Shown here: piece after piece, positions 23,944 to 61,603 of the stretch
Layout: each line of letters starts with the position of its first letter
Position numbering within the stretch: position 1 is the stretch's first letter
Origin: a virus
Lineage: Duplodnaviria; Caudoviricetes
DNA: 64,000 bases
Strand: one strand, 5' to 3'
Virus record (IMG/VR): IMGVR_UViG_3300030098_005649
Made by a program: the position numbers and the translations under genes
The notes under the pieces: generated by a model
Databases searched by the model: none
The model's input: the letters and a program-made list of their open reading frames with translations, nothing else
Told to the model about the DNA's origin: nothing

Positions 23944-24192
23944 ATGAGGAAGAGAATGGCTAAGAAATTACCAAAGAAGAAATGTCAGCATTGTGGGAAG
24001 TTTACAACCACTCCATACAAGGTAACTAAAGTACCAGGTTTTCGTATGGCAATGGATGTACCCAATTATGTAAAACAAGATAAGGGTAGAAAGAACCCAC
24101 GAGCTGAAAGGTTCAATGGTGTTGTGGAAAAACATTATTGTAATACAGAATGTTATATGGATTCAGTAGATGCAAACATTTCTCCCGTATAA
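23944..24192 (+). CDS. small Cys-containing (zinc-finger-like) protein
   Basis: CQHC..YCNTEC. Confidence 0.55.
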   Translation: MRKRMAKKLPKKKCQHCGKFTTTPYKVTKVPGFRMAMDVPNYVKQDKGRKNPRAERFNGVVEKHYCNTECYMDSVDANISPV

Positions 24193-24643
24193 ATCATTTG
24201 AAGAATCTGCAAAAGTATTAGATTGGCGTAGACTCGGTAAACAAAGAGTCGAGGGAATGCAAATCATAAATGCGATTGAACAGAAACCTCGTAAGGATGG
24301 TAAACCATATAAGGGTTGGTTGAATCATCCTGCGACAGTTATGTGGAGACCGCATGTTGATTTGTTGAAACACTATACCAATATAATAATACAAGAGTGG
24401 ATTGATAGAGGATACAACAATAATATGAAGTTCTATGATGTGAAGTGGCCAATTGACTTACCAGAGTGGTTAGGTTACGAACCATTTCATTCATCACATA
24501 GAGCTAACTTACTTCGTAAAGATAGAGAATACTATTCACAATTCAAGTGGAAAGAAAATTCAGAAGACCCGTATGTATGGAGAGATGTTGAGAAGAAGTG
24601 GTACAGGCAATATGTGGGTACAGGTGAAAGGGTATACTTCTGA
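24170..24643 (+). CDS. pyrimidine-dimer DNA glycosylase (DenV/MSMEG_6728 family)
   Basis: MQTFLPY..LDWRRLGKQRVE..NHPATVMW..SHRANLLRKD. Confidence 0.85.
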   Translation: MQTFLPYKSFEESAKVLDWRRLGKQRVEGMQIINAIEQKPRKDGKPYKGWLNHPATVMWRPHVDLLKHYTNIIIQEWIDRGYNNNMKFYDVKWPIDLPEWLGYEPFHSSHRANLLRKDREYYSQFKWKENSEDPYVWRDVEKKWYRQYVGTGERVYF

Positions 24644-24644
24644 G

Positions 24645-25547
24645 ATGAAAGGGTGGATATTTTCTACACAAAGTAATCCATCATACGAGACTACACGATT
24701 GATAGAATGCTTTGAAAGTGAAGGCATTGATGCATATATGGTACATCCTAACGAGGTTGATATCTTTGTTAGTAGAGAAAACAGAAAATCGGTACAGGTA
24801 GCAAACGAGTACGCATCAATACCTGATTTTGTAATACCACGAGTGGGAAGCTCAACTACATATTACCAGAAGGCAGTCTTCAGGCATTTGGAAAGAATGG
24901 GTGTTATGTTTATCAATGGTAGTGATTCCATAGATAATGTAAAGGATAAATTATATACGATGCAGATACTCGCACAGAATAATATTCCACACCCAAAAAC
25001 TATGTTAGTTAGGAATCCAATAAATCCAACATATGTAGAGAAGAACATTGGGTTTCCTATCGTGGTAAAATCACTAAGTGGTACACACGGAAAGGGAGTA
25101 TATCTTGCAGAGAATAAGAGAAACTTTATCCAACTTGTAGATATGATGGAACAGATAAATGATAGATTCAATATTATACTACAAGAATATGTTTCTGATT
25201 CTCACGGAAAAGATATTAGGATAGTGGTTGTTGGTGGTAAGGTAGTTGGTGGTATGAAAAGAGAATCTAATGATGGAGATTTTAGAGCAAACATTACACG
25301 AGGTGGTGGGGCAAAACCAATAGAGATAGATGAACAAATGGAATATCTTGCATTAGAAACTACTAACTTGTTGGGATTAGATATTAGTGGAGTTGATTTA
25401 CTTTATGATAATGGTGGATATAAGATATGTGAAATAAACTCATCACCAGGATTTCAAGGTATGGAAAAATATACTGACATAAAAGTTGCTGAACAGATAG
25501 TTAATTATATAAAGATAAAACTTGGATATACCAATGGGAATCATTAG
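24645..25547 (+). CDS. rimK: RimK family alpha-L-glutamate ligase (ATP-grasp)
   Basis: VIPRVG, DKL, VVKSLSGTHGKGV, DIRIVVVGG, FRANITRGG, GVDLL, EINSSPGF. Confidence 0.9.
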   Translation: MKGWIFSTQSNPSYETTRLIECFESEGIDAYMVHPNEVDIFVSRENRKSVQVANEYASIPDFVIPRVGSSTTYYQKAVFRHLERMGVMFINGSDSIDNVKDKLYTMQILAQNNIPHPKTMLVRNPINPTYVEKNIGFPIVVKSLSGTHGKGVYLAENKRNFIQLVDMMEQINDRFNIILQEYVSDSHGKDIRIVVVGGKVVGGMKRESNDGDFRANITRGGGAKPIEIDEQMEYLALETTNLLGLDISGVDLLYDNGGYKICEINSSPGFQGMEKYTDIKVAEQIVNYIKIKLGYTNGNH

Positions 25548-25646
25548 AGATTTTATAGAGATGTTGAAGAAGATAATTTTTTTATATCAATACAAACGAC
25601 ATCTGAAGAAGAGAATAGAGAAGAATAATTTTGGTCGTAGGGAAGA

Positions 25647-26297
25647 ATGGTAATGGATATAGCATCGTTAGCTGGTCATCTTGCATTTGGGTTGATAGCC
25701 TTTTCTTTTTTAGTAAAGGATATTTTATGGTTGAGAGTAGTATCAATACTTGCAAGTTTATTTTCAGTATTTTATAATTACACAATACCAGAAACTCCAA
25801 TGTGGTTAGCAATCAATTGGAACATAGTTTTTGTTCTTGTAAACATATATCATATTGCGGTAATTATATATGAGAAACGACCAATAAAGATGCAACCAAA
25901 AGATAAAGAACTATATGAAACTATGTTCAAGGACTTGAGTCCTGTAGAGTATCTAAAGATAAGTAAAGTTGCAGAGTGGAAAAAGTATAAGTCTGGTCAA
26001 TCACTAATAGTACAAGGAATGCCTGTTGATGATTTGATATTGATTTATAATGGTACGGTAAATGTAATCGTGGATGGAGAAGGAGTTGCAAATCTAAAGG
26101 ATGGCCAGTTCGTAGGTGAGATGTCATTCCTTACAGAGAAACCTGCGACCGCTACTTGTAAGGTAGAACACGATACTGAATGTTTAGTGTGGAAACAACC
26201 AGAGTTCAAAGAACTACTGAAAAGAAATCCATCACTATACTACACGATACAAAGTTTATTGAGTAACCAACTGGTGGGTTATAGTACAATAAAGTGA
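25647..26297 (+). CDS. Popeye-like membrane protein with cNMP-binding domain
   Basis: N-terminal TMs (DILWLR..WNIVFVLVN) then LILIYNGTV..GQFVGEMSFLT..ATATC cyclic nucleotide-binding fold. Confidence 0.8.
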   Translation: MVMDIASLAGHLAFGLIAFSFLVKDILWLRVVSILASLFSVFYNYTIPETPMWLAINWNIVFVLVNIYHIAVIIYEKRPIKMQPKDKELYETMFKDLSPVEYLKISKVAEWKKYKSGQSLIVQGMPVDDLILIYNGTVNVIVDGEGVANLKDGQFVGEMSFLTEKPATATCKVEHDTECLVWKQPEFKELLKRNPSLYYTIQSLLSNQLVGYSTIK

Positions 26298-26536
26298 TAG
26301 ATAAATTAGGTCATTACATTTGGTTGAGAATAAATAAAGACCAAGAAGTTTTGAAACAAACAAAACCAATGCATATGAGTGGATTGTATGTATCACCAAA
26401 ACATATACAAAAGTATATAGAGGATTTTGTTACATATGGATTTGATTATCAAGGTGAAGATGTAACAAATATAGATGACATAGATTTTGAACCTATTCCA
26501 AAGTATTGGGATGAAAGTGATGGAAAATTACAATGA
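26294..26536 (+). CDS. hypothetical protein
   Basis: GTGA overlap. Confidence 0.55.
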   Translation: MIDKLGHYIWLRINKDQEVLKQTKPMHMSGLYVSPKHIQKYIEDFVTYGFDYQGEDVTNIDDIDFEPIPKYWDESDGKLQ

Positions 26537-27141
26537 GTGATTTTGTACAAGTAAAGAATTTTATTACTGATGATGAATGTAATGATTTGATAAAATTTTA
26601 TGATACATATTTTAGTGTACAACATCATACAAATCAGCATACTGATGTATTCAATAACAAGTCATTTCAATATGAAGTTATTGCAAACCAATATCAGAAA
26701 AGTTATGCCAGATATTTGATGGATAGAATTAGATGGGGAATAGTAAATGAACTCCGAAAGTTTTATAAGGATGATAGATTTATTTATAATGATTATTGTG
26801 ATTTAGTTAGATGGAAAGTTGGTGAAGGATTGAATTGGCATGCAGATGCAAATTACTATCCATCAGGAGAACCTAACTATGTTAGTTATCGTACATATGG
26901 TTCTGTTACTTATTTGAATGATGATTACGAGGGTGGTGAATTTGAATTTATGAATGAAAAGTATGGTAAGATAAAACCAGAAAAAGGTATGATGATAGCA
27001 TTTCCAGCCGATTTGGATTGGGTACATAGAGTAAATACGGTAACTAAAGGTGATAGGTATACTATGGCAAGTTGGTATACAGATGATAAGAGTCATTGGA
27101 ATTATGTAAATGAAGGTTGGAGTGGTACAATAGGAGTATAA
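26533..27141 (+). CDS. 2OG-Fe(II) oxygenase (prolyl-4-hydroxylase-like)
   Basis: WHAD, YLNDDYEGGEF, HRV..KGDRY. Confidence 0.9.
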   Translation: MSDFVQVKNFITDDECNDLIKFYDTYFSVQHHTNQHTDVFNNKSFQYEVIANQYQKSYARYLMDRIRWGIVNELRKFYKDDRFIYNDYCDLVRWKVGEGLNWHADANYYPSGEPNYVSYRTYGSVTYLNDDYEGGEFEFMNEKYGKIKPEKGMMIAFPADLDWVHRVNTVTKGDRYTMASWYTDDKSHWNYVNEGWSGTIGV

Positions 27142-27148
27142 AAAATAT

Positions 27149-27221
27149 GGGGCTGTAGCTCAGTTGGGAGAGCGCTTCACTTGCACTGAAGAGGTCGCAG
27201 GTTCGATTCCTGTCAGCTCCA
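27149..27221 (+). tRNA. trnA: tRNA-Ala(UGC)
   Basis: GGGGCTG/CAGCTCC acceptor with G3:U70, anticodon arm CTTCA-CTTGCAC-TGAAG, GGTTCGATTCC; CCA not encoded. Confidence 0.97.
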
Positions 27222-27226
27222 CATAT

Positions 27227-27297
27227 GTCGTGGTGACCGAAGAGATAGGTGGCGGACTGCAAATCCGTTTATGTGAGTGCGAATCTCACCCACGACT
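27227..27297 (+). tRNA. trnC: tRNA-Cys(GCA)
   Basis: GTCGTGG/CCACGAC acceptor, U73, GCGGA-CTGCAAA-TCCGT; T-loop TGCGAAT non-canonical. Confidence 0.88.
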
Positions 27298-27309
27298 CAA
27301 GGAAAAGTT

Positions 27310-28530
27310 ATGATACAATTCAAGAATAAAATAGAAGTGAAATGGAATCACTCGATGATGGATAATAAACCATTCCACGATGAAGTCTCAAAACCATTTG
27401 TAGAAGTAACTGGTGATTTTGAAACGAGTTACAATATAAGGTTTGAGTCTGATGGTGAATTGTTACATAGCACAATCATACAAAATAATATGTGGGTTGA
27501 TGTCAATCTATGTTATCCCAAAGATGTAGATATTTGGATTACAGAAGCATTTTCTGGTATAGAGAAACACTACAAACTTGAACTCACTAAGGATAGTAAA
27601 GTATTATGTTACTTCAATTCTAATGCAATGGGAGATGCCATAGCTTGGGTAAACACTATCCAAAAGTGGGTTGAAGAAAAGGGATGTCAAGTAGATATCT
27701 TTGCTACTGAATTTATTTGTTCGTTGTTCAAGAACGGAAAAAATGAGATAAAAAATGTAGTAAGTGAAAGGGATGTTTGGGGTGGACCTGAACGAAAGGA
27801 TAGATGGGAAAAATATGATTTTATATTTGGAGTTGGTCAATACGAAGATAATAAATGGTTAGTCGAAAATAAAAGAAGGCCTGAAAACCCACATCCACGA
27901 GAGATAACTTTACAAGAAGTACCAAGTAGTATATTAGGAATAGAAACTAATTTTGATAGACCAGAAATAAATCCAAGTTGGATAAAAGAACCAACAATAG
28001 ATGGAGACTATGTTTGTATTGCAACACACTCTACCTTACAGGCAAAGTATTGGAATAAAATTGGTGGTTGGGATTATGTCGTACCTTATCTAAATCTAAA
28101 AGGATATAAAGTAGTAAGTATATCTTTAGAGTCTGGTATTTATTGTGGTAACAAAACTCCAAAGACAGATATAAATAAAACAGGTTACATACCAATATCA
28201 GATAGAGTAAACGACCTACATCATTGTAAATTTTTTATTGGATTACCATCTGGATTATCTTGGTTGGCTTGGGCACTAAATAAACCTGTACTTATGGTTG
28301 GTAATTATTCTAAACCATATTCTGAATTTCAAGATAATGTTGTTAGAGTATATAAGGAAGGCCCATATACTGGAATATATAATGATACATCTATAGACAT
28401 ACAAAACAAAGAATGGAATTATAATCCTTATATAGAATGTAAAGACTTATCAGATTGGAATGATATTGAGACCATAGATACTCAAGATGTTTTTGATGGA
28501 ATTGATAAGTTGATTGATATTTATTTATAA
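27310..28530 (+). CDS. autotransporter heptosyltransferase (TibC/Aah)-like GT-B enzyme, Cys-less variant
   Basis: MGDAIAW, CIATHSTLQAKYWN, FIGLPSGLSWLAWAL. Confidence 0.75.
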   Translation: MIQFKNKIEVKWNHSMMDNKPFHDEVSKPFVEVTGDFETSYNIRFESDGELLHSTIIQNNMWVDVNLCYPKDVDIWITEAFSGIEKHYKLELTKDSKVLCYFNSNAMGDAIAWVNTIQKWVEEKGCQVDIFATEFICSLFKNGKNEIKNVVSERDVWGGPERKDRWEKYDFIFGVGQYEDNKWLVENKRRPENPHPREITLQEVPSSILGIETNFDRPEINPSWIKEPTIDGDYVCIATHSTLQAKYWNKIGGWDYVVPYLNLKGYKVVSISLESGIYCGNKTPKTDINKTGYIPISDRVNDLHHCKFFIGLPSGLSWLAWALNKPVLMVGNYSKPYSEFQDNVVRVYKEGPYTGIYNDTSIDIQNKEWNYNPYIECKDLSDWNDIETIDTQDVFDGIDKLIDIYL

Positions 28531-28567
28531 CTCGAAATTGTACTCCCGTACAAACAGGAAATAAATT

Positions 28568-28861
28568 ATGGCTAAAAAATGGCTGCATGTCTTCAAACAT
28601 ACAACAGATGAATGGTCGGATTTTTACGGCGGTGGTGGTGGTTTGCCAAGAGCATCTGATTTTGTAAATATAGATGAAGATAAGTTTTCACAATGGATTG
28701 TGGATGTCACAAATGAAAAACTATTATCAACCGAGTATGGTGATGGTTGGACACTTGATGACTATGAAGTGGCCGAACATACAGATGGACATTGGAAAGG
28801 TATGTGGGAAATTCAAGTAAAGAGAATTACACATCCTGATAGTGGCTCATTAGGAATATAG
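28568..28861 (+). CDS. acidic Trp-rich hypothetical protein
   Basis: SD agga. Confidence 0.6.
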   Translation: MAKKWLHVFKHTTDEWSDFYGGGGGLPRASDFVNIDEDKFSQWIVDVTNEKLLSTEYGDGWTLDDYEVAEHTDGHWKGMWEIQVKRITHPDSGSLGI

Positions 28862-28894
28862 TATATAATTTATTTCCCAATAGGGAGACATACA

Positions 28895-29101
28895 ATGACA
28901 AAATCTAATTACTTTTCTGATAAAAAGAAATCTTTCGATGATACATTATTTAGTATATCTAATCTAATGAAAAGATTTCAGGTTGATATCTCAAGAAAAG
29001 ATATAGATAAAAACTATCTATTGAATCGGCTAACTTATTGGATAGAAACTCTTGAGAATTTGAGACACGAAGTGATGATGTCTAAAAGTGATGAAAAATA
29101 A
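28895..29101 (+). CDS. hypothetical protein
   Basis: SD ggag. Confidence 0.6.
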   Translation: MTKSNYFSDKKKSFDDTLFSISNLMKRFQVDISRKDIDKNYLLNRLTYWIETLENLRHEVMMSKSDEK

Positions 29102-29121
29102 AGTCTTTCATAATTATATGT

Positions 29122-29346
29122 ATGGAAGACAAAGTTATAGGAATCGTTGAGAAGAATACACGAGAACAAATAAGAGTCACACGAAAGAACTATCGTGGAT
29201 ATGAATTCATTGATGTTCGTGTATATTGGAAAGACGAGACAACACAAGAGTGGAAACCGAGTAGTAAAGGTATTTCACTATCCCCAAAAACAATACCTCA
29301 GATAGTAGAGCACATCATAACAGGTGCAGAAGAACTCGGATTGTAA
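29122..29346 (+). CDS. PC4/YdbC-like ssDNA-binding protein
   Basis: IRV..YRGYEFIDVRVYW..WKPSSKGISL. Confidence 0.85.
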   Translation: MEDKVIGIVEKNTREQIRVTRKNYRGYEFIDVRVYWKDETTQEWKPSSKGISLSPKTIPQIVEHIITGAEELGL

Positions 29347-29491
29347 CATTCTGAACACTGTATCAATTTGTTATAACAATCTGAGACACATTTATCTCCC
29401 ACACCTAAAGTAAATTATACCCAACAAATTTTATTTTATTACTATACATAGAGTTATAGAGAATCTCCAAAATTGTGGTACAGTTTTTGTA
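29342..29491 (+). promoter_or_regulatory. sigma54-like regulatory region of pilin cassette
   Basis: TGGTAC-N5-TTGTA (29476-29491); TGT-N10-ACA (29342-29357); IHF consensus TATCAATTTGTTA (29361-29373); palindrome TTGTTATAACAA (29368-29379). Confidence 0.5.
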
Positions 29492-29540
29492 CTATATAAG
29501 TATAAATAATACTTGTTGAACAACTAATATGGAGATAATA

Positions 29541-30179
29541 ATGTTCAAAAACATAATGAAAAAACTGAAGAGTAGGAGAGGAAACTCACTTGCTGAATTC
29601 GCAGTTACAACCGCTATGATGGCTACATTAGCCACAACTGCAGCTCCCAAGTTTGGGCAAATTGGTGCAGGTGCAAAAGAGAAAAAGACTATCGCTAATA
29701 TCGATAAAATTGTAACGGTTGCTAATAATTTTTATAACCAAACATTATCCGAAGAGGGTAAGGGAAGATTTCCTGGACAATCTAAATACGACCAACCAGT
29801 TGGTGGTGTTTCATTATCTGAAGGACAACTTACTGATGAAGCCTTAGAGATATATGTTGAAACTATTCTTGATGCTAAAGACAATTACGAATCAGACTTA
29901 GGTGAGTTTGTTTATGTATTTTCAACTGCATCTGATGACGATGATGCCTTACAAGGTAATTGGATGAATGATGAAACATCTGTAGCATTTGATGTAGATG
30001 GTGCATTAGATTTCAAATCAGACTTTGGTAACAATGGTATATCATCCCCATTTCAGGATGGTTCATATGCATACTTGGTAATACCAGGTAGTGGTTCAGG
30101 TACAGATGCTCAAGCACCTGCACTTATCGTAATAGATACTGAGAACCCTGCAGAACTAAATAAAACTTTAGTACCATAA
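29541..30179 (+). CDS. type IV pilin-like protein 1 (candidate major pilin), atypical Asn at +1
   Basis: KSRRG|NSLAEFAVTTAMMATLATTAAPKF class III signal with E5; SD ggag. Confidence 0.8.
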   Translation: MFKNIMKKLKSRRGNSLAEFAVTTAMMATLATTAAPKFGQIGAGAKEKKTIANIDKIVTVANNFYNQTLSEEGKGRFPGQSKYDQPVGGVSLSEGQLTDEALEIYVETILDAKDNYESDLGEFVYVFSTASDDDDALQGNWMNDETSVAFDVDGALDFKSDFGNNGISSPFQDGSYAYLVIPGSGSGTDAQAPALIVIDTENPAELNKTLVP

Positions 30180-30190
30180 ATAAAAAAACA

Positions 30191-30207
30191 GAACGAAAGA
30201 CTCGTTC
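30191..30207 (+). other. intercistronic hairpin between pilin 1 and pilin 2
   Basis: GAACGA-AAGAC-TCGTTC. Confidence 0.55.
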
Positions 30208-30221
30208 AGAAAGAGAACAAA

Positions 30222-30671
30222 ATGAAGAAACTAAAAAACAAAAACGGATTCACTCTTATTGAGTTGATAATGGTTATGATAATATTAGGAGTATTATCAG
30301 CAGTTGCCATACCGAGATACTTGGATACCATCGAAAAGGCAGAAGAAGCTGCTGAAGATGCAGTTATAAGTAATATCGGTGTCGCTCTTGACAACTATGC
30401 TATCCATAAGTTGGTAGATAGTGGTAGAGGAATATGGCCAGACAATCCATTTGATGCACTAAAAGACAAACCACAAACTTATACTACTGACGGTACAAAT
30501 GCCGACACAGATAATGAGTGGACATTTGTAGATGGTGACCCAGCATACATTACCCATCAAAGGTCTGATAACACCAGATGGAAGTGGGAGTATGATGCAG
30601 GAATAAACACAGGAACAGATTCAGATACTACTGGTACATTAGGCAGTAGAGAAAGTCTGTCAAGTGAATAA
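30222..30671 (+). CDS. type IV pilin-like protein 2
   Basis: KNKNG|FTLIELIMVMIILGVLSAVAIPRY. Confidence 0.95.
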   Translation: MKKLKNKNGFTLIELIMVMIILGVLSAVAIPRYLDTIEKAEEAAEDAVISNIGVALDNYAIHKLVDSGRGIWPDNPFDALKDKPQTYTTDGTNADTDNEWTFVDGDPAYITHQRSDNTRWKWEYDAGINTGTDSDTTGTLGSRESLSSE

Positions 30672-31134
30672 TAAGAACGGGTTTACTTTAGTGGAACTCA
30701 TTATGGTGATGGTAATTGTGGGAATACTCGCAGCAGTATCTATACCACGATTTGCTGATATTGTAAGACAATCCGAGGCCGCAGCAGAACAAGGAATCCT
30801 TGTGAATTTAGTCGCGGCCTTAGATACTTATAGTCAAGAACAATTCATTGAAGAGGGTGTGGTTAGTTGGCCAGACAATCCATTTGATGCCTTGAATAAA
30901 GTACCACCATCATATGATAAAACACAATCTACTTTGATGACTCAGATGAAAGATAGTGATTGGATTTATACAGGTCAGGCAAGTAATGATTATAAAAATT
31001 CAATCGTACACAGACGAAAAGAAGATAGTTTAGCAATTTGGACTTATGATAAAACAACAGGTGAGATAGGATATTCCAATCCACCTTACAAACCAAATCA
31101 AGTCGTATACAGACCTGATTTACAAGGACAATAA
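30664..31134 (+). CDS. type IV pilin-like protein 3
   Basis: KNG|FTLVELIMVMVIVGILAAVSIPRF. Confidence 0.95.
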   Translation: MNNKNGFTLVELIMVMVIVGILAAVSIPRFADIVRQSEAAAEQGILVNLVAALDTYSQEQFIEEGVVSWPDNPFDALNKVPPSYDKTQSTLMTQMKDSDWIYTGQASNDYKNSIVHRRKEDSLAIWTYDKTTGEIGYSNPPYKPNQVVYRPDLQGQ

Positions 31135-31141
31135 AAATCGA

Positions 31142-31585
31142 ATGAAAAAACTACTGAAAGAAAAAATGAATGAAGGTTTTTCGTTGGTAGAATTAGTAAT
31201 GGTTATGGTCATCTTAGGAATATTATCTGCAGTTGCAGTACCTAAGATGTCCGCCGTTCTAAACAGAGCAACTGTTAGAGCTGAAAAGGCAGTGGTAGAC
31301 CAAGTATGGGCAGGTGCCGAACAATATGCTGGTGACAAACTTTTAGAAGTAGGAACAGAATCTTGGCCTTATAATCCTCTATCAACTTTTGGTAGAACTC
31401 GTAATATGAATATAAATTTAGTATTAGGTATACCTGACGAGGATGACGAATGGCAGTATAACATCGAAAGTGATGGTGAGGGTAGAGTATATCATTTTAG
31501 AATTGATGATGAGATATGGTATTACACATATGATTCTACAACATTTCAATTAGCAGAAGAACCAGTGAGGTATATAGCACAATAA
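31142..31585 (+). CDS. type IV pilin-like protein 4
   Basis: NEG|FSLVELVMVMVILGILSAVAVPKM. Confidence 0.95.
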   Translation: MKKLLKEKMNEGFSLVELVMVMVILGILSAVAVPKMSAVLNRATVRAEKAVVDQVWAGAEQYAGDKLLEVGTESWPYNPLSTFGRTRNMNINLVLGIPDEDDEWQYNIESDGEGRVYHFRIDDEIWYYTYDSTTFQLAEEPVRYIAQ

Positions 31586-32010
31586 TGGATGATAAAATAA
31601 AAGAACTACTATTATACTTTGGTATATTTGGATGTATAATGTTTGTATTACTAAGACCAGATCCAGATGAAATACCAAAAGTAAAACCACCATCAATGGA
31701 ATACTTTGATGAAACACCAATTGTTGCTTGGAGAGCATATGATAGAAAAGGTGGACCTTGTATAAAGGTTAGGTACAAGGTACAACGAGATAAAACAAGA
31801 TTGTATATGTTTGCTGAAAATGGAAAGTTGGTACATCAAACACCATTAGCATTAGATAGATTCAAAGATGGTAGAGAAAGAACAGAAACATATGTTTGGA
31901 AACTTTACAGAACTGAATGGACATCTGATATAAATCCTGGATACTACACAATCGTAGTTGGAACAGACCACGACAAAAGAGGCATAGGTACAGAGATAGA
32001 AGTATTATGA
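31585..32010 (+). CDS. membrane-anchored protein with FlgD/Ig-like beta domain
   Basis: N-terminal TM; beta pattern ending YVWK..PGYYTIVV; TAATG coupling to pilin 4. Confidence 0.5.
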   Translation: MDDKIKELLLYFGIFGCIMFVLLRPDPDEIPKVKPPSMEYFDETPIVAWRAYDRKGGPCIKVRYKVQRDKTRLYMFAENGKLVHQTPLALDRFKDGRERTETYVWKLYRTEWTSDINPGYYTIVVGTDHDKRGIGTEIEVL

Positions 32011-32594
32011 AGTACCTAGCACTTTTATTATTACTAAGTGTTACATATTCTCAAGATATCCAACAAGTATCGGAAACAAAAAGAAGTAGTGTATACGGAC
32101 AAGATTGTGATGATACGGAATATAGAAATTCCAATGGTACACCCAATTGGAAAAACTATGGACAATGGTTATCCGAATGTGATTCAATCCAAACAGTAAC
32201 CTTAGATATAGAATTTGCCGAAAGACGAAAGAAACAACAAAGAGAACAAGCCATACAAGATAGTATTGAATTATCAGAAGTAGAAGATATAGATTTTGAT
32301 TTAGATGCTATGTGGGAAAATACAGTATGGGAAGAAATACAAGATGTCACTACGGTGTATGCAGAAGTAGAACAAATAACTGCAGTTGCTGGTGTTCGTG
32401 GAGCTGAAGCAGAAGATGAAGCATTAGCTCTTTTATATTATAGAAAATCAATGAAAGGATTATCAGAATTAGACCTACAAAAAGCCTTGGGTAAACTTAT
32501 AATAAAAAGAGGCAACCTTTCTGATGATGACCCACAGGCTATAAAAATAGATTCTTACATAAAACAAATAAAATCGAAGTTAGAGAAAGTATAA
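32007..32594 (+). CDS. secreted protein with TAVAGVRG motif
   Basis: Signal peptide TYS|Q; ATGA coupling. Confidence 0.55.
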   Translation: MKYLALLLLLSVTYSQDIQQVSETKRSSVYGQDCDDTEYRNSNGTPNWKNYGQWLSECDSIQTVTLDIEFAERRKKQQREQAIQDSIELSEVEDIDFDLDAMWENTVWEEIQDVTTVYAEVEQITAVAGVRGAEAEDEALALLYYRKSMKGLSELDLQKALGKLIIKRGNLSDDDPQAIKIDSYIKQIKSKLEKV

Positions 32595-32624
32595 TACTAT
32601 TTATAAAAAAGAAAAATAATATAT

Positions 32625-33131
32625 ATGCCTCTAAGTCGTTGGACAAGTAAACATAGAACTACTCTTGGTCGTAAAAGAAAAGATGACCCACAGAATAAAA
32701 GTTATAGAACACCACCCAAGCCAGAATCTTATTACACGAGTACAAAAGGTCAATGTCGTTGGTGTGGTAATGTAATTACAAAGGAAGATGGTACAATCAA
32801 TATGAGGAAAAGTTGGCACGAACAATGTGTTGATGAGTATATGATTATTTACCATACACGAGAAGCACGAAAGCATGTTTACAAAAGAGATAAGGGTGAA
32901 TGTAATTATTGTGGAAAAAATTGTGGTAGACGAAGATGGGACTTAGACCATATCAGACCTTTATGGGAACAAAAAGGAGTAAAGGAAAAAGATTTGGATT
33001 GGAGTTATTGGGCATTAGATAACTTACAAACATTATGTAGAAAATGTCATAAAGAAAAAACAAAGACAGATACTGCAAATGCAAGAAAATCTAAAAAAGT
33101 TATTTACAAAAGAATAGAGAAGTTCAAATGA
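32625..33131 (+). CDS. HNH endonuclease
   Basis: CNYCG..DLDHIRPL..NLQTLCRKCHKEKT. Confidence 0.9.
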   Translation: MPLSRWTSKHRTTLGRKRKDDPQNKSYRTPPKPESYYTSTKGQCRWCGNVITKEDGTINMRKSWHEQCVDEYMIIYHTREARKHVYKRDKGECNYCGKNCGRRRWDLDHIRPLWEQKGVKEKDLDWSYWALDNLQTLCRKCHKEKTKTDTANARKSKKVIYKRIEKFK

Positions 33132-33718
33132 TACAAATGAATAAATGGGCTATACGAGGTTCTATACATACTGGTTATCAAGAAAGTATGTTAGGAATAA
33201 TGAAGTGGATAAAAGATAATTCACCAAATAAAATTATACAACTTGGTACAGGTAGTGGAGTCATCACATTCCTTATGGCACAATATTTATATGATACAAA
33301 CCCAAATGGTAAAATAAAAGCTTATGATTGGTGGGATGATTCAAGTGATGGGTTTCATATTTTTAGTATGGATGATTTTGAATTTTCATATCGTAATCAA
33401 CCAAAAGAATTACAGAACATAATCGAATATGAAAAGTTGGATTATAGAAAATGGTTGGATAATCCTGATACTGATTGGGATATGATTTATTTAGATTTGA
33501 ATAATGATGGTGAGAAGATTGAAAAAATATATGATGTGCTAAAAGATAAAGTACTTGATGAGGGTAAGGTGATATTTTTTGAAGGTGGTACGGATGGTAG
33601 ATTCAATAAAGAAGCGTATAAAGGTAGAAAGAAATTTTCTGAAATGAAAGACATACCATATAAAGTATATAGTGTGGGAATAAAAAGTTTCGGAGTAATA
33701 AGTAGGGAGTTCATATAA
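33128..33718 (+). CDS. class I SAM-dependent methyltransferase-like protein
   Basis: IIQLGTGSG, WDMIYLD. Confidence 0.65.
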   Translation: MIQMNKWAIRGSIHTGYQESMLGIMKWIKDNSPNKIIQLGTGSGVITFLMAQYLYDTNPNGKIKAYDWWDDSSDGFHIFSMDDFEFSYRNQPKELQNIIEYEKLDYRKWLDNPDTDWDMIYLDLNNDGEKIEKIYDVLKDKVLDEGKVIFFEGGTDGRFNKEAYKGRKKFSEMKDIPYKVYSVGIKSFGVISREFI

Positions 33719-33951
33719 TGAAAGAACCAGTATTGAGGAGAGTTCCACCAGGTGATAAATGGATGGACTATAATGACCAAAATGAAGAAGTATTTCCATC
33801 ACTAACTGATGGACTACAATATGTTTTTGAAACACAAGGTCAAACAGAATTCCATATTGATGCAAGAGCTGGTGTTGTTTTTGTGGTCAAACCTGACCCA
33901 CCAAAAGCTCCACCACCACCAAAAACATTTTCTTTGTATGGTGACGAATAG
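33718..33951 (+). CDS. hypothetical protein
   Basis: TAATG coupling. Confidence 0.6.
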   Translation: MKEPVLRRVPPGDKWMDYNDQNEEVFPSLTDGLQYVFETQGQTEFHIDARAGVVFVVKPDPPKAPPPPKTFSLYGDE

Positions 33952-34235
33952 TGAGTAGGGATAAAGAAACGGAACAGTGGAAATACTTTAGTAAACTTAT
34001 GGATGATTACAAGTCTGGTAAACGAGGAGTTCAACCAGGTCATCCAAAAGAAATAGAAGATGCAATAAAAACATTTTTAGATGCAGCTAATATGATTAGA
34101 GAATTTCCTGAGATTGATACTATACCACCAGAGTATGTTGAGAACTTATTCAAAGTACTAACCAAGTATCCTGAATATAATAGGCTAACATTAGAATTGG
34201 TAGATATTTTGAATAAAGGTCAAAATAATGCTTGA
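33951..34235 (+). CDS. hypothetical protein
   Basis: Coupled GTG start. Confidence 0.55.
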   Translation: MSRDKETEQWKYFSKLMDDYKSGKRGVQPGHPKEIEDAIKTFLDAANMIREFPEIDTIPPEYVENLFKVLTKYPEYNRLTLELVDILNKGQNNA

Positions 34236-34260
34236 CCCGTATTGCTTTTTTTCGTAAGTT
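34232..34260 (+). promoter_or_regulatory. sigma70-type early promoter
   Basis: aatgcTTGACC-17-TAAGTT. Confidence 0.7.
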
Positions 34261-34269
34261 TAAGGATTA

Positions 34270-34494
34270 ATGTTATCAAGAGAGTTTTTATTAGAACGAG
34301 GTTATTGTTGTGGTCACGGATGTCTTATGTGTCCGTATGAACCAAAACATATAAAGAATAATACAGATGTTGCACAACATTGTAAGTTATGTGAAAAGAA
34401 TAAAGAAATAGCAGGTGGTTATGTCATCTGTTTTGATTGTTTATTTGAGTTAGACATCAATCATAAAAATTACAAAAAATATAAAAAAAAGTGA
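34270..34494 (+). CDS. DUF5522-like Cys-rich small protein
   Basis: LLERGYCCGHGCLMCPY. Confidence 0.8.
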   Translation: MLSREFLLERGYCCGHGCLMCPYEPKHIKNNTDVAQHCKLCEKNKEIAGGYVICFDCLFELDINHKNYKKYKKK

Positions 34495-34503
34495 AAATAG
34501 TGC

Positions 34504-34532
34504 TTGACCCGTATTGCTTTTCTTTGTATATT
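34504..34532 (+). promoter_or_regulatory. sigma70-type early promoter
   Basis: atagtgcTTGACC-17-TATATT. Confidence 0.8.
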
Positions 34533-34558
34533 TAGGTATGAAAAATAAAGGAAAAATA

Positions 34559-36676
34559 ATGAACTTCGAGACAAAATTCAACCCTAATAGACTCAGAGAA
34601 TTATATTCTGCTGGTTCTAAAAAAGATAAGGTTGGACAAAACTTTTGGTTGTCTGATGAGTGGGATAGTCGTAGGACTTCTTTCTTTGATAATGACGATG
34701 AAGATTTTGTCAAACCTAAAGTAGATGTTATGAAACTTTCTTCTATGAAGAAGGCAGTTAGTAACTTCGTTTCTATTGTAACTCAAGACCCAACAATCAA
34801 AGTAAAATTCAACTCTGGTAAAGATTCTTATACTGATGGTAAAGTTGTAGTTATCTCATCAAATACTGATGATAAAATTTTCAACCCAACTGTTGGTTTG
34901 GCTCTTCACGAGGGTTCACATTGTAAACTAACTGATTTTGAGTATGTAAAAGATTTCTTATTTTCAATTCCACAAGAGTACATCAATCGTGCTAAAGAAT
35001 TTGGAATTGATGATTATGTAGTAAAGACTCACCTAAAAAATATCTTGAATTATGTTGAGGATAGAAGAATTGACTACTATGTTTTCAAGACTTCACCTGG
35101 TTACAAGGCATACTATCATTCAATGTATGACAAGTATTTCAACTCTAAAATTGTTGATAAGGCACTTGACTCTTCTGAGTATACTGATGAGACTTGGGAG
35201 TCTTATGAGTTTAGACTTATCAATCTTACTAATAAGAATACTCAGTTAGATGCATTGAAAGGACTTCGTGAGATTTACAATCTTATTGATTTCAAAAATA
35301 TTGGTAGACTAAAATCTACTGAAGATGCTGGTAAAATTGCATACAAGATTTATGACATCATCCTAAATAATCTTCAACCACTTACTACAGAAGAAGATTC
35401 AGATGGTTCTGAGAATGGTGATGGAGATGACTCACAAGAGGGTACTCCACAACCATCTAACGGAAATGAAGATGGAATGAGTGATGGTAATTTTGACTTG
35501 AATGATGGACAAGAATCTAATGGTGGTAACCAAAGTACTTTCCAACCATCTAACGAACTTTCTGATAGACAAAAGAAACAATTAGAAAACGCTGTAAAGA
35601 AACAAAAGAAATTTCAAGATGGTGAAATCACTAAAAAGAAAGTTTCTAAGGCTACTCAAAATGAACTAACGGCAGTTGAAGAATCGGGCGCTGAAATGGT
35701 TGATGTTACTGAGTATCATTCAACAGATTGGAATGGTAAAAAATACTACCCTAAAGTTCTTGTTTATAGAAATCTTACTGAATCTCTAATGGACTCAGAT
35801 ATGGTTAGTATAATTGATTCTTATTGGTACAAGAATAGAGATAGACAAGACTACTACAGAAATACAGATGAGAATTATGTAACTGAGGGTATCAGACTTG
35901 GTACTATCTTAGGTAAGAAATTACAAGTTAGAAATGATTCTCGTACTACTAAGTGGACAAGACTTGATAGTGGTAGAATCGATAAGAGATTGATTGCAGA
36001 ACTTGGTTTTGGTAATGATAGAGTTTTCCAAACTTCTTATACTGAATCTTACTCAGATGCTATCATTCACATCTCAGTAGATGCGAGTGGTTCAATGGGT
36101 GGTGAAAAGTGGACTAAAACAATGACTTCTGTTGTGGCTATTACTAAGGCGGCTTCAATGATTCAAGGATTGGATGTGGTTGTTTCTTTTCGTTCAACTC
36201 AAAATACTTCAGGTAGATATGGTAGAAATGGTATGTATGTACCAATGATTCTTATTGGATATGATTCAAGAAAAGATAAATTCAACAAAGTAAAAAGATA
36301 CTTCAACTACATCAGACCAGGTGGTACTACACCAGAAGGTTTATGTTTTGAGGCGATTATGAAAGAAATTGACGCTACTACTAATGATAGAGATTCTTTC
36401 TTTCTAAATCTTTCAGATGGAATGCCAATGTTCAATGGTCAAAATATTGACTACAATGGTGAACAGGCTTTGAATCATACTCGTAAAATGGTAAAAGTAC
36501 TTCGTGAAAGAGGTATCAAAGTTATGAGTTACTTTATTGGAGATAGATACGATTATAGTGGAGATAGAGTTATGAGTAATTTCAAAACAATGTATGGTAA
36601 TGACTCACAATTTATTGATACCACAAATGTTACTTCTTTAGCTAGAACAATGAACAAAAGATTCCTACAGAAGTAA
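34559..36676 (+). CDS. vWA-domain protein with N-terminal HExxH domain (MoxR partner, CobT-like)
   Basis: LALHEGSH; NYVEDRRID; acidic linker; VDASGSMG MIDAS; GGTTPE; LSDG. Confidence 0.85.
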   Translation: MNFETKFNPNRLRELYSAGSKKDKVGQNFWLSDEWDSRRTSFFDNDDEDFVKPKVDVMKLSSMKKAVSNFVSIVTQDPTIKVKFNSGKDSYTDGKVVVISSNTDDKIFNPTVGLALHEGSHCKLTDFEYVKDFLFSIPQEYINRAKEFGIDDYVVKTHLKNILNYVEDRRIDYYVFKTSPGYKAYYHSMYDKYFNSKIVDKALDSSEYTDETWESYEFRLINLTNKNTQLDALKGLREIYNLIDFKNIGRLKSTEDAGKIAYKIYDIILNNLQPLTTEEDSDGSENGDGDDSQEGTPQPSNGNEDGMSDGNFDLNDGQESNGGNQSTFQPSNELSDRQKKQLENAVKKQKKFQDGEITKKKVSKATQNELTAVEESGAEMVDVTEYHSTDWNGKKYYPKVLVYRNLTESLMDSDMVSIIDSYWYKNRDRQDYYRNTDENYVTEGIRLGTILGKKLQVRNDSRTTKWTRLDSGRIDKRLIAELGFGNDRVFQTSYTESYSDAIIHISVDASGSMGGEKWTKTMTSVVAITKAASMIQGLDVVVSFRSTQNTSGRYGRNGMYVPMILIGYDSRKDKFNKVKRYFNYIRPGGTTPEGLCFEAIMKEIDATTNDRDSFFLNLSDGMPMFNGQNIDYNGEQALNHTRKMVKVLRERGIKVMSYFIGDRYDYSGDRVMSNFKTMYGNDSQFIDTTNVTSLARTMNKRFLQK

Positions 36677-36855
36677 TGATATTCAAATGGTTACATAATA
36701 GAAAGTATAAAGACCAACCGATGTGTCCTTGTGGGTGGAGAATGATTCCATCCACTCGGAAACACTTTGAACAATATTGGATTTGTAAATTTGTCGAATG
36801 TACTTGGGAAGCATTTACCAATGAAACTTATAGGGTAAAATTTTGGAAATCGTAA
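36676..36855 (+). CDS. 59-aa zinc-ribbon-like protein (not in ORF track)
   Basis: TAATG coupling; CPCG..CKFVEC. Confidence 0.55.
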   Translation: MIFKWLHNRKYKDQPMCPCGWRMIPSTRKHFEQYWICKFVECTWEAFTNETYRVKFWKS

Positions 36856-36873
36856 AAAAAATAAAAAAAGTGC

Positions 36874-36903
36874 TTGACCCGTATAGGTTTTTTACCTTAT
36901 ATT
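36874..36903 (+). promoter_or_regulatory. sigma70-type early promoter
   Basis: aaaagtgcTTGACC-18-TATATT. Confidence 0.8.
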
Positions 36904-37020
36904 ATGGTATGAATTTTAGGAGAAATATTATGAATTGGAAACTAATCGGTTATAGAATCGCAGAATTTCTAACTTGTTTATTGATGTTTGGAACATTTTA
37001 CTTTTGGATGGTATTAGTAA

Positions 37021-37488
37021 ATGTATAAACATTTGAATTTGAAACCTGTCAAACTTATGACACTTAGAGAAAAGAGAACTGCTCAACTTGAAGTAATTCT
37101 CAAGGACGAAGTTTATCTACCAAAAGATAATAGTTTTCGTCCATTCGTGGATGATATGTATTTCGCACTACAGAGTGAAAACAGAACCATCACACCTAAG
37201 ATGGACGATGCAATTACTGGTATCGTACAACGATATGCAAAACATTTGAAGAACACTACTGATTCAGACTTCATAGAAAAAAGAGATAAGTTAGTTGCAA
37301 AGGTTGATAAGGTTATTGACCTACTAACTAAATGTGATTATAGTCCTGAATATGAGGGTGGTAAATTAGAAATGTTAGTTTCATTTAGAAAACAGGCCAG
37401 TAGAAATGGTTATCTCTCAAAGAAACAAAAATTAGTATTGAATAAATTTTACCAACAATTTCTGAAAAAAGTTGAAAAAAGTGCTTGA
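37021..37488 (+). CDS. hypothetical protein
   Basis: Overlap coupling. Confidence 0.65.
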   Translation: MYKHLNLKPVKLMTLREKRTAQLEVILKDEVYLPKDNSFRPFVDDMYFALQSENRTITPKMDDAITGIVQRYAKHLKNTTDSDFIEKRDKLVAKVDKVIDLLTKCDYSPEYEGGKLEMLVSFRKQASRNGYLSKKQKLVLNKFYQQFLKKVEKSA

Positions 37489-37514
37489 CTTGTATAGGCT
37501 TTTATCAGTATATT
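37485..37514 (+). promoter_or_regulatory. sigma70-type early promoter
   Basis: aaaagtgcTTGACT-18-TATATT. Confidence 0.8.
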
Positions 37515-37559
37515 AGGGTATCGAAAATGACAAAAAAACAAACAAAAGGAAATAAAGTT

Positions 37560-38729
37560 ATGAACAAAACAATCGTAAAAATTGAAAAGAGTGGAAATCG
37601 TTTCAATGCATTTGATGCAAATGGAAACAAATTCACTTCTCAAATTATCACTTCAACTCGTAAGTCGGCTTACGAAAACAATATGGCTCTTGAACAGAGA
37701 GAGGGTAAAGGTGGTCGTGTATATTGGTGGAAAGTCCCTATGAGTGAATTCGAGTCTACTATGGCTCCTGTAATTGATACATCAGTTATCGATGTTCCTA
37801 CAGAACACGCTGAAGTGTTGAACTTCATCCATTCTTCTTATGACCTCAAACCTAAAGGTTTGGTAATGAAAGAACTCAAGTGGAAATACTTGGTTCGTTC
37901 GGCAGTTCGTGGTAAAAATATTTTGATGACAGGTCCCGCTGGATGTGGTAAAACAATGGCGGCTAAGTCACTTGTAAATTCACTTGACCGACCTGACTTC
38001 TACTTCAACTTAGGTGCGACTCAAGACCCAAGGTCTTCACTAATTGGTAATACTCACTTCGATAAGAAGAAGGGTACTTACTTTTCTGAGGCACTTTTCG
38101 TCAAGGCGATTCAGACTCCAAACGCTGTGATTCTTCTTGATGAGTTATCAAGGGCTCATCCAGATGCTTGGAATATTCTAATGACCGTTCTTGACCAAGG
38201 TCAAAGATACCTTAGACTTGACGAGTCTACTACTCAAGAAACTATACCTGTCGCAGAGGGTGTTACTTTCGTCGCGACCGCTAACATTGGTAATGAGTAT
38301 ACTTCTACAAGAGTTATGGATAAGGCACTTATGGATAGGTTCATCACTATTGAGATGGATGTTCTTGGACAAGAAGAAGAATTTGGTTTACTTCAGTATA
38401 TGTTCCCGCATGTTGATGATACTTTACTACAATCTGTTTCTGAGATTTCTTCAGTAACTCGTACTGAGTCAATGTCAGAGGCTGGTAAATTATCAAATGG
38501 AGTATCTACAAGAACTTCTGTTGAGTTGGCTGGACTACTCTTTGATGGGTTCACACTTGATGAGGCTGCTGAAGTTACTATCTATCCACAATACTCTGAT
38601 GATGGTGGTGTAGAGTCTGAAAGAACCTATATCAGACAATTAGTTCAGAAGTATGTAAATGATGGAACTGATGAAGACTTATTCAACTCAGAAGAGATTG
38701 AAGAAGAAAATTCAGATGTGAGAATGTAG
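37560..38729 (+). CDS. MoxR/CbbQ-NirQ/CobS family AAA+ ATPase
   Basis: GPAGCGKT Walker A, ILLDELSRA Walker B, ATAN, ALMDRF; SD aaagga. Confidence 0.92.
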   Translation: MNKTIVKIEKSGNRFNAFDANGNKFTSQIITSTRKSAYENNMALEQREGKGGRVYWWKVPMSEFESTMAPVIDTSVIDVPTEHAEVLNFIHSSYDLKPKGLVMKELKWKYLVRSAVRGKNILMTGPAGCGKTMAAKSLVNSLDRPDFYFNLGATQDPRSSLIGNTHFDKKKGTYFSEALFVKAIQTPNAVILLDELSRAHPDAWNILMTVLDQGQRYLRLDESTTQETIPVAEGVTFVATANIGNEYTSTRVMDKALMDRFITIEMDVLGQEEEFGLLQYMFPHVDDTLLQSVSEISSVTRTESMSEAGKLSNGVSTRTSVELAGLLFDGFTLDEAAEVTIYPQYSDDGGVESERTYIRQLVQKYVNDGTDEDLFNSEEIEEENSDVRM

Positions 38730-41395: not shown

Positions 41396-41907
41396 GAGAA
41401 AGTTATGGTAGAAGTATTAACAATAGGTGGAACTGTTGTATTTGCTTTTTATTTAGTATACGCTTTATATTATAATGAATATAAAGATTTTTTTGAATAA
41501 GGATAAACTGATGAAAGAAGTATTAGAATGTTATAAAATTATAGTACCTTATGCAACTGAAACAACATCAGTAACAGCAAAATATTATTGTTGGGAATTA
41601 GATTATGAGGTATAAATTAATTACAGATTATACAACAATTGATGGTACATTGTATAGTGGTGACTTAGTTACTGAAGAAGTTAGTAACACAAAAGATGAA
41701 TCTAAAATTAGGGTAAAGGATGCTATGGGTCGTATATGGTTTGTACCTAAAAAAATTTTGAAGGTTTTTAAGATTTGACATATATTTATATAATGAAAGA
41801 CAATATGACATACGCACAAAAGTGGTATAGATATTGTATAATAATAATTGTATCGCTCACAGGAGGATACAAGTTTGGCTAAAAGTAAACAACATAGGAG
41901 AAAACAA

Positions 41908-42381
41908 ATGACTAAAGTAGTTGTCCGCAATCCATTCCCTATAATCGATAGGGATTCCTTTTTAACACCTTTTGATAAAATGTTTGATGAACTCGTTCAA
42001 CATTCATTTCCTGAAATCAACAAACAAGTTGGAGTCAATCCATTTCAAGGTACTGCATATCCAAAGGTCAATGTATATGAATACGATGACAAAGTTGGTG
42101 TAATTGCAGAGATTCCTGGTCTTGATAAGAAAGACTTGAATGTAGAAGTTGAAGATGGTAAACTAACTATCTCAGGTGACAAACATAGTGTACCTGAAGA
42201 TACTGGTGCAAAAGTAATTCGTAGAGAACTCAAACAATCCTCGTTCAGGCGTTCTTTCGAGTTAGGTGAGTTATTGGATGGTGATAACATCTCTGCTAAC
42301 TTCAAAGACGGTATTCTATCCGTTGAGATTCCTAAAATAGAACCAACTCTTCCAAAGAAGAATGTGGTTAAAATCTCATAA
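41908..42381 (+). CDS. small heat-shock protein Hsp20
   Basis: YPKVNV, AEIPGLDK, RRELKQSSFRRSF, ANFKDGILSVEIPK; SD aggag. Confidence 0.95.
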   Translation: MTKVVVRNPFPIIDRDSFLTPFDKMFDELVQHSFPEINKQVGVNPFQGTAYPKVNVYEYDDKVGVIAEIPGLDKKDLNVEVEDGKLTISGDKHSVPEDTGAKVIRRELKQSSFRRSFELGELLDGDNISANFKDGILSVEIPKIEPTLPKKNVVKIS

Positions 42382-52088: not shown

Positions 52089-52170
52089 AAAAGATAAAGA
52101 AAAAATCGATTTTCAGAATTTACATACATATATATAAATGTAAGAAGTTTTGAAAAACATTTTCAAATAT

Positions 52171-52244
52171 AAAATAGAGGCTCACACGATTTTTAGTTTC
52201 CACTTCGTTCCAAACTTAAAAAACAAGATGAGCCTTTATTTTTT
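52171..52244 (+). other. long imperfect stem-loop with U-tract
   Basis: AAAATAGAGGCTCA/TGAGCCTTTATTTT outer stem; TTTTTAGTTT/AAACTTAAAAA inner stem. Confidence 0.7.
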
Positions 52245-52259
52245 AATCCATTTAGATAA

Positions 52260-52787: not shown

Positions 52788-52795
52788 AATAATGC

Positions 52796-52825
52796 TTGAC
52801 TTATATACAAATTTCTTTGTATATT
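52796..52825 (+). promoter_or_regulatory. sigma70-type early promoter
   Basis: aatgcTTGACT-18-TATATT. Confidence 0.8.
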
Positions 52826-52831
52826 TATAAT

Positions 52832-53860: not shown

Positions 53861-53873
53861 ATGAAAAAAGTGC

Positions 53874-53902
53874 TTGACCCGTGTTGTTTTTCTTCGTATA
53901 TT
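53874..53902 (+). promoter_or_regulatory. sigma70-type early promoter
   Basis: aaaagtgcTTGACC-17-TATATT. Confidence 0.8.
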
Positions 53903-53926
53903 AGAGTAAATTAATTAGGAGATATT

Positions 53927-54370: not shown

Positions 54371-54372
54371 TA

Positions 54373-61541: not shown

Positions 61542-61603
61542 CAAAAATTCGATTTTTAGTTTTTTAGATGATATTTATAACTAATAACGAGAGGAACGAA
61601 ACT

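Follow-up and report, generated by a model that had tools for sequence, protein, structure and literature searches.

The DNA analyzed here, a stretch of 64,000 nucleotides (the window) from a tailed phage (IMG/VR record IMGVR_UViG_3300030098_005649; Duplodnaviria, Caudoviricetes), harbors at positions 29541-32594 a cassette of six tightly packed open reading frames (ORFs) on the plus strand in the order P1-P2-P3-P4-O5-O6 (Table 1). An earlier note on this DNA, made from its letters alone, had placed them at the same coordinates and described four tandem type IV prepilin genes, coupled to a gene for an immunoglobulin (Ig)-like protein with a transmembrane (TM) segment and a gene for a secreted protein. 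Both parts of this description were borne out. All four prepilins possess a class III signal, consisting of a short basic leader with glycine at -1 and a hydrophobic helix with glutamate at +5, and each contains a proline at +22. The glycine and the glutamate are invariant in the P1 family and also in the family formed by P2-P4. Gene P3 overlaps P2 by 8 nucleotides (nt), and O5 and O6 overlap their upstream neighbors by 1 and 4 nt. The start codon of P1 at 29541 was likewise confirmed, as a GGAG motif lies 6 nt upstream and the same start is used by thousands of homologs. The hairpin reported to follow P1 exists; it is small and lacks a U-tract, and an RNA contig described below reads across it. 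Most relatives also have a hairpin at this place, though its sequence and strength vary.

Table 1. Features of the cassette region and the tmRNA gene in the window (a slash marks the predicted prepilin cleavage site).
Feature	Position	Strand	Description
Upstream activator-site-like region	29343-29379	+	GTAACA half-site at 29343-29348; palindrome TTGTTATAACAA at 29368-29379
Sigma54-type -24/-12 promoter-like element	29476-29505	+	TGGTAC-N5-TTGTA, then conserved TATATAAG box
P1	29541-30179	+	Divergent type IV prepilin, 212 amino acids (aa); leader MFKNIMKKLKSRRG, ending G/NSLAE; mature N-terminus NSLAEF...
Hairpin between P1 and P2	30191-30207	+	6-bp stem, -6.6 kcal/mol, z -3.2, no U-tract on + strand
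P2	30222-30671	+	Prepilin, 149 aa; leader ending G/FTLIE; PF07963 and TIGR02532 above cutoff
P3	30664-31134	+	Prepilin, 156 aa; leader ending G/FTLVE; GTG start overlaps end of P2
P4	31142-31585	+	Prepilin, 147 aa; leader ending G/FSLVE; phage-specific branch
O5	31585-32010	+	Bitopic protein, 141 aa; N-terminal TM helix and Ig/fibronectin type III (Fn3)-like beta-sandwich
O6	32007-32594	+	Signal-peptide protein, 195 aa; C-terminal half host-derived
One-piece transfer-messenger RNA (tmRNA)	61139-61542	+	Predicted tag GNDQPTYAYAA

The proteins P2-P4 exceed the cutoffs of both general prepilin models, with 27.4-34.7 bits against PF07963 (cutoff 21.2) and 27.6-33.2 bits against TIGR02532 (cutoff 16.3), and they match PHROG 3433, annotated as 'pilin', across the N-terminal helix. 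They score well below every equivalog model; the GspG model TIGR01710, for instance, yields 32-44 bits against a cutoff of 88.85, and the match covers the N-terminal helix only. Because the prepilin cutoffs are exceeded and all equivalog models are missed by far, P2-P4 are classified as generic type IV filament subunits without specific orthology. P1 has no match in Pfam, PHROG or NCBIfam, and neither PF07963 nor TIGR02532 matches it by itself. An exhaustive search placed it in a narrow family (297 clusters at 50% identity), whose members have a basic leader, proline at +22 and asparagine, alanine, glutamine or serine at +1. The profile of this family matches solved pilins, namely Geobacter PilA-N at an E value of 5e-6, PilA and MshA. 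The AlphaFold (AF2) model of P1 (pLDDT 72.7) consists of a 58-residue helix (residues 15-72) followed by a four-stranded beta-sheet, which is the lollipop fold of pilins as far as the model goes. When the model was compared with 48,161 PDB representatives by VIA-align, which is independent of Foldseek, 13 of the 14 top matches were pilins or pseudopilins; a Foldseek search of the same model against PDB returned nothing significant. Thus the leaders, the matches of P2-P4 to curated models, and the family profile and model of P1 together assign all four proteins to the class III signal-peptide proteins. P1 is likely the major-type subunit of the cassette.

The two accessory genes have no family in Pfam, PHROG or NCBIfam. 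The AF2 model of O5 (pLDDT 69.7) shows the TM helix and a seven-stranded Ig/Fn3-like domain, the fold of which matches generic beta-sandwiches only. Queries with O5 gave no match in the five host genomes introduced below. A match to O5 is also absent in two phage lineages (L010 and L013) that keep P1-P4 and O6 and whose P1 is only ~55% identical to that of the window. As these lineages retain the pilins, O5 appears to be dispensable for the role of the pilins. O6 has a signal-peptide-like N-terminus, as judged by reading the sequence, and its residues 86-182 share 48-55% identity with a 152-aa signal-peptide protein of three host genomes. In two of these three genomes the corresponding gene shares a contig with the pilus cluster.

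The cassette resides in a phage genome. The window is AT-rich (G+C content ~0.32), with nearly all long ORFs on the plus strand. Its closest record, a 109-kb IMG/VR contig (G001), is 98% identical across the cassette, and relatives of P2 with 78-99% identity were located on 14 viral contigs. The order P1-P2-P3-P4-O5-O6 is conserved where contigs span the cassette, apart from the two lineages without an O5 match, and the flanks differ. One 126-kb contig (G002) carries both the cassette and the T4-type major capsid protein Gp23 (PF07068, 251 bits), which is absent from the 64-kb window. This capsid protein is 52-54% identical to those of Flavobacterium phage immuto and Microcystis phage Mel-JY01, followed by Rhodothermus phage RM378. 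Judged by its capsid gene, the carrier of the cassette is an uncultured, abundant, marine T4-like myovirus, and it is presumably virulent. Terminase_6C was not detected in the five phage fragments G001-G005. Marine metagenomes contain thousands of close relatives of P1 and likewise of P2. The 50,697 deposited phage genomes, searched at both the DNA and the protein level, yielded neither the cassette nor any match beyond the helix.

No PilB, PilC, PilD, PilQ or PilT was found among the window ORFs examined or in G001-G005. Searches of these five fragments for T2SSF, Peptidase_A24, Secretin and T2SSE were empty apart from a 13-16-bit T2SSE match on a CobS-type AAA+ protein. Upstream of the cassette G001 extends for ~72 kb, and downstream of it G002 extends for ~95 kb, so that they jointly cover ~170 kb, roughly the whole expected genome. 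The lack of assembly machinery noted earlier for the window thus holds beyond it.

The genes have full-length relatives in a single cellular lineage. One genome per prokaryotic species was scanned with the alignment of the P2-P4 family, and full-length cellular relatives (61-75% identity) were obtained only from genomes named Marinimicrobia or Neomarinimicrobiota or from marine metagenome-assembled genomes (MAGs) with the same locus. All remaining cellular matches were confined to the N-terminal helix. The names SAR406, Marinimicrobia and Neomarinimicrobiota refer to the phylum Fidelibacterota of the FCB group, a globally abundant uncultured phylum of the ocean. Two of the host matches come from long contigs (583 kb and 220 kb). 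Of their loci, which have a G+C content of 0.33-0.35, one holds a tandem array of three P1-like and ~17 P2/P3/P4-like genes and the other an array of two and ~8. A PilB-type ATPase and an A24 peptidase are encoded in all five host genomes, and on both long contigs they are located ~4 kb upstream of the array. In one host genome (G007) the cluster comprises, in this order, a response regulator, the A24 peptidase, a T2SSE ATPase with an MshEN domain, an activator with Sigma54_activat and HTH_8 domains, PilC, two P1-like, eight P2-like and four minor-pilin-like genes, a large protein, an AAA_22/PilM protein, PilO and a secretin. Type IVa pilus clusters of the mannose-sensitive hemagglutinin (MSHA) type are characterized by an MshE ATPase with an MshEN domain, an ExeA-like AAA protein and a secretin. 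The SAR406 cluster resembles them in its MshEN-type T2SSE ATPase, AAA_22/PilM, PilO, PilC, A24 peptidase and secretin, and differs in its 10-20 pilin paralogs of two families, one of which has asparagine, alanine, glutamine or serine at +1, and in having its own sigma54 activator. From its gene content, the G007 cluster is classified as a complete MSHA-like type IV filament cluster; none of its assembly or activator parts is present in the phage.

The tandem arrays, with 10-20 paralogs from two type IV pilin families, are located at the SAR406 loci L026 (1-10500), L028 (4900-10500) and L111 (9655-17325). In the G007 cluster a canonical sigma54 promoter precedes the first P1-like gene, which also has a strong terminator (-22 kcal/mol). 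The size of the arrays is suggestive of subunit switching or of heteropolymeric filaments, and it hints at an arms race over the filament.

The relationship between phage and host genes differs from one subunit to the next. P2 shares 61-65% identity with the last gene of the SAR406 pilin arrays, whereas the counterparts of P3, at 50-54% identity, belong to a separate subfamily of host paralogs. The earlier note had proposed a phylogeny against bacterial pilins as a check. In the maximum-likelihood tree, phage P3 clusters with one host paralog subfamily, P2 falls inside another host group as part of an unresolved polytomy, and the P4 proteins form a long-branched clade (support 100/100) that contains phage sequences only. 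Phage P2 and P3 thus fall with SAR406 paralog groups and, as these groups are different, at least two paralog types are older than the capture. Over the first 22 residues of mature P1, all phage copies match the first P1-like gene of the host exactly. Overall identity between phage P1 and the host copy is 42%, with the divergence located in the central and C-terminal globular part, the center of which is barely alignable. The cassette therefore appears, on sequence grounds, to have been captured from a SAR406 (Fidelibacterota) pilus locus, promoter included, and a SAR406 bacterium is the probable host of the phage.

The putative promoter was located by comparing the DNA upstream of P1 between aligned, diverged phage loci. 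The sole conserved block in otherwise variable surroundings reads TTTGGTACA-N5-TTGTA-N-TATATAGGTA, which resembles the -24/-12 elements recognized by sigma54. Upstream of one host P1-like gene the sequence TTGGCAC-N5-TTGCT-ATATAAG is found, a canonical sigma54 promoter, and upstream of a second TTGGCAC-N5-TTGTT-ATATATAGG, in which TTGTT resembles the phage element. A degenerate motif occurs once upstream of P1 in seven phage loci that span the region and also in front of the host P1-like genes; two further phage lineages carry variants of it, and 97 of 118 loci are without it. In the window alone the motif is not significant (16 of 100 shuffles), so that conservation and position carry the weight. 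GTAACA/TGTTAC half-sites precede all 12 phage and host promoters examined, in 1-4 copies compared to 0.11-0.25 expected. In both phage and host, most of them stand ~100-125 nt upstream of the promoter motif; in the window the GTAACA region lies ~100-130 nt upstream of the -24 box, and in the host a dyad TGTAACA-N3-TGTTACA occupies the position equivalent to the phage upstream sites. RpoN is encoded in four of the five host genomes, true sigma54 activators also occur in the hosts, and a Sigma54_activat+HTH_8 protein is encoded inside the host pilus cluster, whereas neither RpoN nor an enhancer-binding activator was found in the phage records. Two accessory features of sigma54 promoters, sites ~80-150 nt upstream and the availability of RpoN with an activator, are hence both present, the latter via the host genomes. 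The phage element may thus be a retained host sigma54 promoter, and the keeping of this promoter and its activator sites in a T4-like genome suggests that the phage taps a host signaling circuit. A role of the upstream element as a general phage promoter was rejected, as the full pattern occurs only at the cassette. A partial look-alike, TGGTATAGATATTGTATAAT, is located at 41823-41842 (+) just upstream of the ORF at 41848-42381 and may be a second sigma54-type start or a chance occurrence.

All six genes of the cassette are under purifying selection. In pairwise comparisons of the window with four diverged phage loci (dS about 0.7-2.9), the ratio of nonsynonymous to synonymous substitution rates (dN/dS) ranged from 0.05 to 0.38, with values of 0.10-0.15 for P1, 0.05-0.09 for P2, 0.10-0.19 for P3, 0.08-0.28 for P4, 0.14-0.25 for O5 and 0.24-0.38 for O6. 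In marine RNA data, 18 runs drawn from 14 studies contain the cassette. When contigs of four of these runs, each from a different study, were placed on positions 24000-38000 of the window, they tiled 29521-32323 and left the 5-kb flanks nearly empty. One contig (X1, 29565-31522) covers P1-P4 with 1,958 nt and four mismatches. The RNA contigs start 30-90 nt downstream of the promoter element. Uniform carry-over of DNA would be expected to reach the flanks as well.

Taken together, we consider it fairly probable that the cassette is a host-derived set of subunits from which the MSHA-like machine of the host builds a filament, and that the benefit to the phage is a change of receptor. According to this model, the cassette would be transcribed in infected cells from the host-type sigma54 promoter, which would need host RpoN and probably also the enhancer-binding protein of the host pilus cluster. 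The viral prepilins would insert into the inner membrane, be cleaved after Gly(-1) by the host prepilin peptidase, and be polymerized by the host ATPase, platform and secretin. The resulting filament, wholly or partly viral, would present the host assembly interface and a different surface. The likeliest benefit is that the altered receptor surface would exclude rival pilus-binding phages while the filament still works. That the phage supplies subunits to the host machine, as the earlier note had suggested, is supported by the lack of own machinery, the matching SAR406 system, the identical N-termini, the shared promoter, the selection on the genes and the RNA. Among the three outcomes named in that note, replacement of the pilus fits best; poisoning and re-tipping fit worse, as a full set of intact subunits bearing Glu +5 is conserved. 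The intact and complete subunit sets thus favor replacement over poisoning. Remodeling of the receptor with exclusion of other phages is preferred because the globular and presumably exposed parts diverge, P4 and O5 are phage-specific, and a precedent exists in the P-FimU proteins discussed below.

Several observations weigh against this interpretation, in which the host, the sigma54 dependence, the cleavage, the assembly and the benefit are what we infer. The host is uncultured, and its assignment is based only on homology, G+C content and likeness of the promoter. As a host marker the tmRNA gave no support, since the phage tag GNDQPTYAYAA differs from the host tags ADYGYMAAA and ADYGYSAAA. 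The -12 dinucleotide of the window is GT instead of the canonical GC, with the GG at -24 and the spacing of the GG-N10-GC pattern kept. Furthermore, an exact T4-type late box TATAAATA is present at 29501-29508, so that a phage late promoter is conceivable. This reading is less favored: TATAAATA matches the window 19 times compared to 12 expected, with only six matches on the plus strand, and the box is not conserved in the relatives, which read TATATAGGTA. The modeling of the prepilins covered P1, the fold matches of which are modest (Z 4.5-5.8). A co-assembly prediction with mature phage P1 and the mature host P1-like protein gave no answer (score 0.00) and speaks neither way. Finally, the RNA consists of assembled contigs from runs picked for holding the cassette, in which strand, level and start are unreadable.

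A serious rival, which we rate as possible at a clearly lower level, is that the genes serve maintenance: after shutoff of the host, viral subunits would keep the host filament in operation for particle adhesion, positioning or uptake, comparable to the role of cyanophage psbA in photosynthesis, and masking of the receptor would not be the aim. The window is rich in classic marine auxiliary genes (PhoH, peptide deformylase, CobS/T), the complete set of subunit types is retained, and the RNA signal is strong relative to the flanks, all of which would fit such a role. However, identity between the phage copies and the host genes sampled is no more than 42-64%, the differences are located in the globular part, and P4 and O5 are phage-specific, whereas a pure maintenance copy would be expected nearer to the host gene. 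This divergence argument is itself weak because host diversity is undersampled.

It is also conceivable, if rather doubtful, that the virulent T4-like phage specifies an appendage composed of the viral subunits with O5 and O6, which would be induced via the surface-sensing sigma54/activator circuit of the host and serve transmission, not defense. If so, it might tether infected cells to particles or to neighboring hosts, and progeny would be released where hosts are dense.

Dominant-negative poisoning, in which viral prepilins block or shorten the filament and thereby remove the receptor or free progeny from the pili of lysing cells, is unlikely. Proteins by which phages shut down type IV pili are well known (Tip and PfsE, cited in PMC12426801), and some virulent phages carry truncated PilA-like genes (PMC12952977). 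P1-P4, by comparison, are full-length with Glu +5, Pro +22 and conserved C-terminal strands, both host subunit families (the P1 type and the P2/P3 type) are kept, and purifying selection extends over the whole length; for poisoning, one subunit would suffice. A role outside a filament, in which the class III signal serves insertion only and the proteins act in envelope remodeling, lysis timing or a piston like that of type II secretion systems exporting O6, seems slightly less likely still. The envelope proteins O5 and O6 are co-transcribed with the pilins, and the N-terminal helices score best against GspG, but the score of 43.8 bits stays far below the GspG equivalog cutoff of 88.85, the nearest relatives are array pilins in a pilus cluster with an MshE-type ATPase, and L010 and L013 keep the pilins without an O5 match. 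It is highly improbable that the window stems from a bacterial chromosome, or from a mis-binned island close to a pil system of its own: cassette relatives do occur in bacterial MAGs, but the cassette is 98% identical to that of a viral contig and lies on 14 viral contigs, one of which also bears a T4 capsid gene, the long ORFs are almost all on the same strand and include T4-like accessory genes, the five viral records lack pil machinery, and flanks of bacterial chromosome with a full pil system occur only at the separate host loci. One MAG contig of 2.7 kb (L022) encodes counterparts of P1-P4 and O5 that are 40-75% identical; probably this contig stems from a different phage lineage and was mis-binned.

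The preferred reading, a host-built filament with viral subunits, has precedents in other viruses. F10-like phages of Pseudomonas aeruginosa encode P-FimU, FimU-like minor pilins of prophages that are built in by the host machine, alter the pilus surface and block pilus-binding phages (PMC12952977). The cassette shares with P-FimU that the phage encodes a homolog of a host type IV pilus subunit and lacks the assembly genes. P-FimU is a single minor (tip) pilin of temperate phages with a cultured host, whereas the cassette is a six-gene operon of a T4-like phage from an uncultured phylum, comprises a major-like subunit, three further subunits and two envelope accessories, and appears to keep a host sigma54 promoter. 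PilA1 and PilA2 of SNJ2, a provirus of a haloarchaeal pleolipovirus, are tandem pilins acquired from the host and assembled by host machinery; the resulting pili act as receptor for another virus and stimulate biofilm formation as well as motility (PMC12426801). The likeness here is that tandem virus pilins were taken from a host; SNJ2 is archaeal and temperate with two genes, in contrast to a bacterial host, a T4-like phage and a larger set. Untested PilA-like genes have also been listed for prophages of Xylella and for virulent phages of four groups (PMC12952977). These are single genes, some of them truncated, compared to the six genes of the cassette, and the likeness is that pilin-like genes occur in phages, virulent ones included. 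A report of pilins in SAR406 phages was not found in the literature, nor was a cultured phage system or a prior report linking SAR406 phages to pili. While the concept thus has precedents, the operon scale, the combination of a marine T4-like phage and a SAR406 bacterium as its probable host, the apparently retained sigma54 region and the RNA from the environment are new. The cassette provides a concrete link between an abundant T4-like phage lineage and a SAR406 host. It would extend viral pilins assembled by a host machine from single genes in temperate viruses and proviruses to an apparently highly transcribed operon of a presumably virulent marine phage.

Further features were noted around the cassette. 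A gene for an HNH endonuclease (32625-33131, +) follows directly in the window and in G001, whereas most relatives lack it at this place. Possibly, it is a mobile element that inserted where a variable region begins or ends. Adjacent genes for tRNA-Ala(tgc) and tRNA-Cys(gca) (27149-27298, +) lie just upstream of a GT9-like glycosyltransferase gene (27277-28530, +), which lies 1 kb upstream of the cassette. Dedicated glycosylation of the pilins by this enzyme is unsupported, as the gene is not syntenic with the cassette in relatives. A fused glycosyltransferase/methyltransferase of 1,330 aa is encoded at 43773-47765 (+). Besides the two tRNAs and the tmRNA, the window contains a 2OG-Fe(II) oxygenase and, at 34514-38729 and 51333-55283 (+), a CobT/CobS-like pair, PhoH, polynucleotide kinase and peptide deformylase, which form a typical accessory set of marine T4-like phages.

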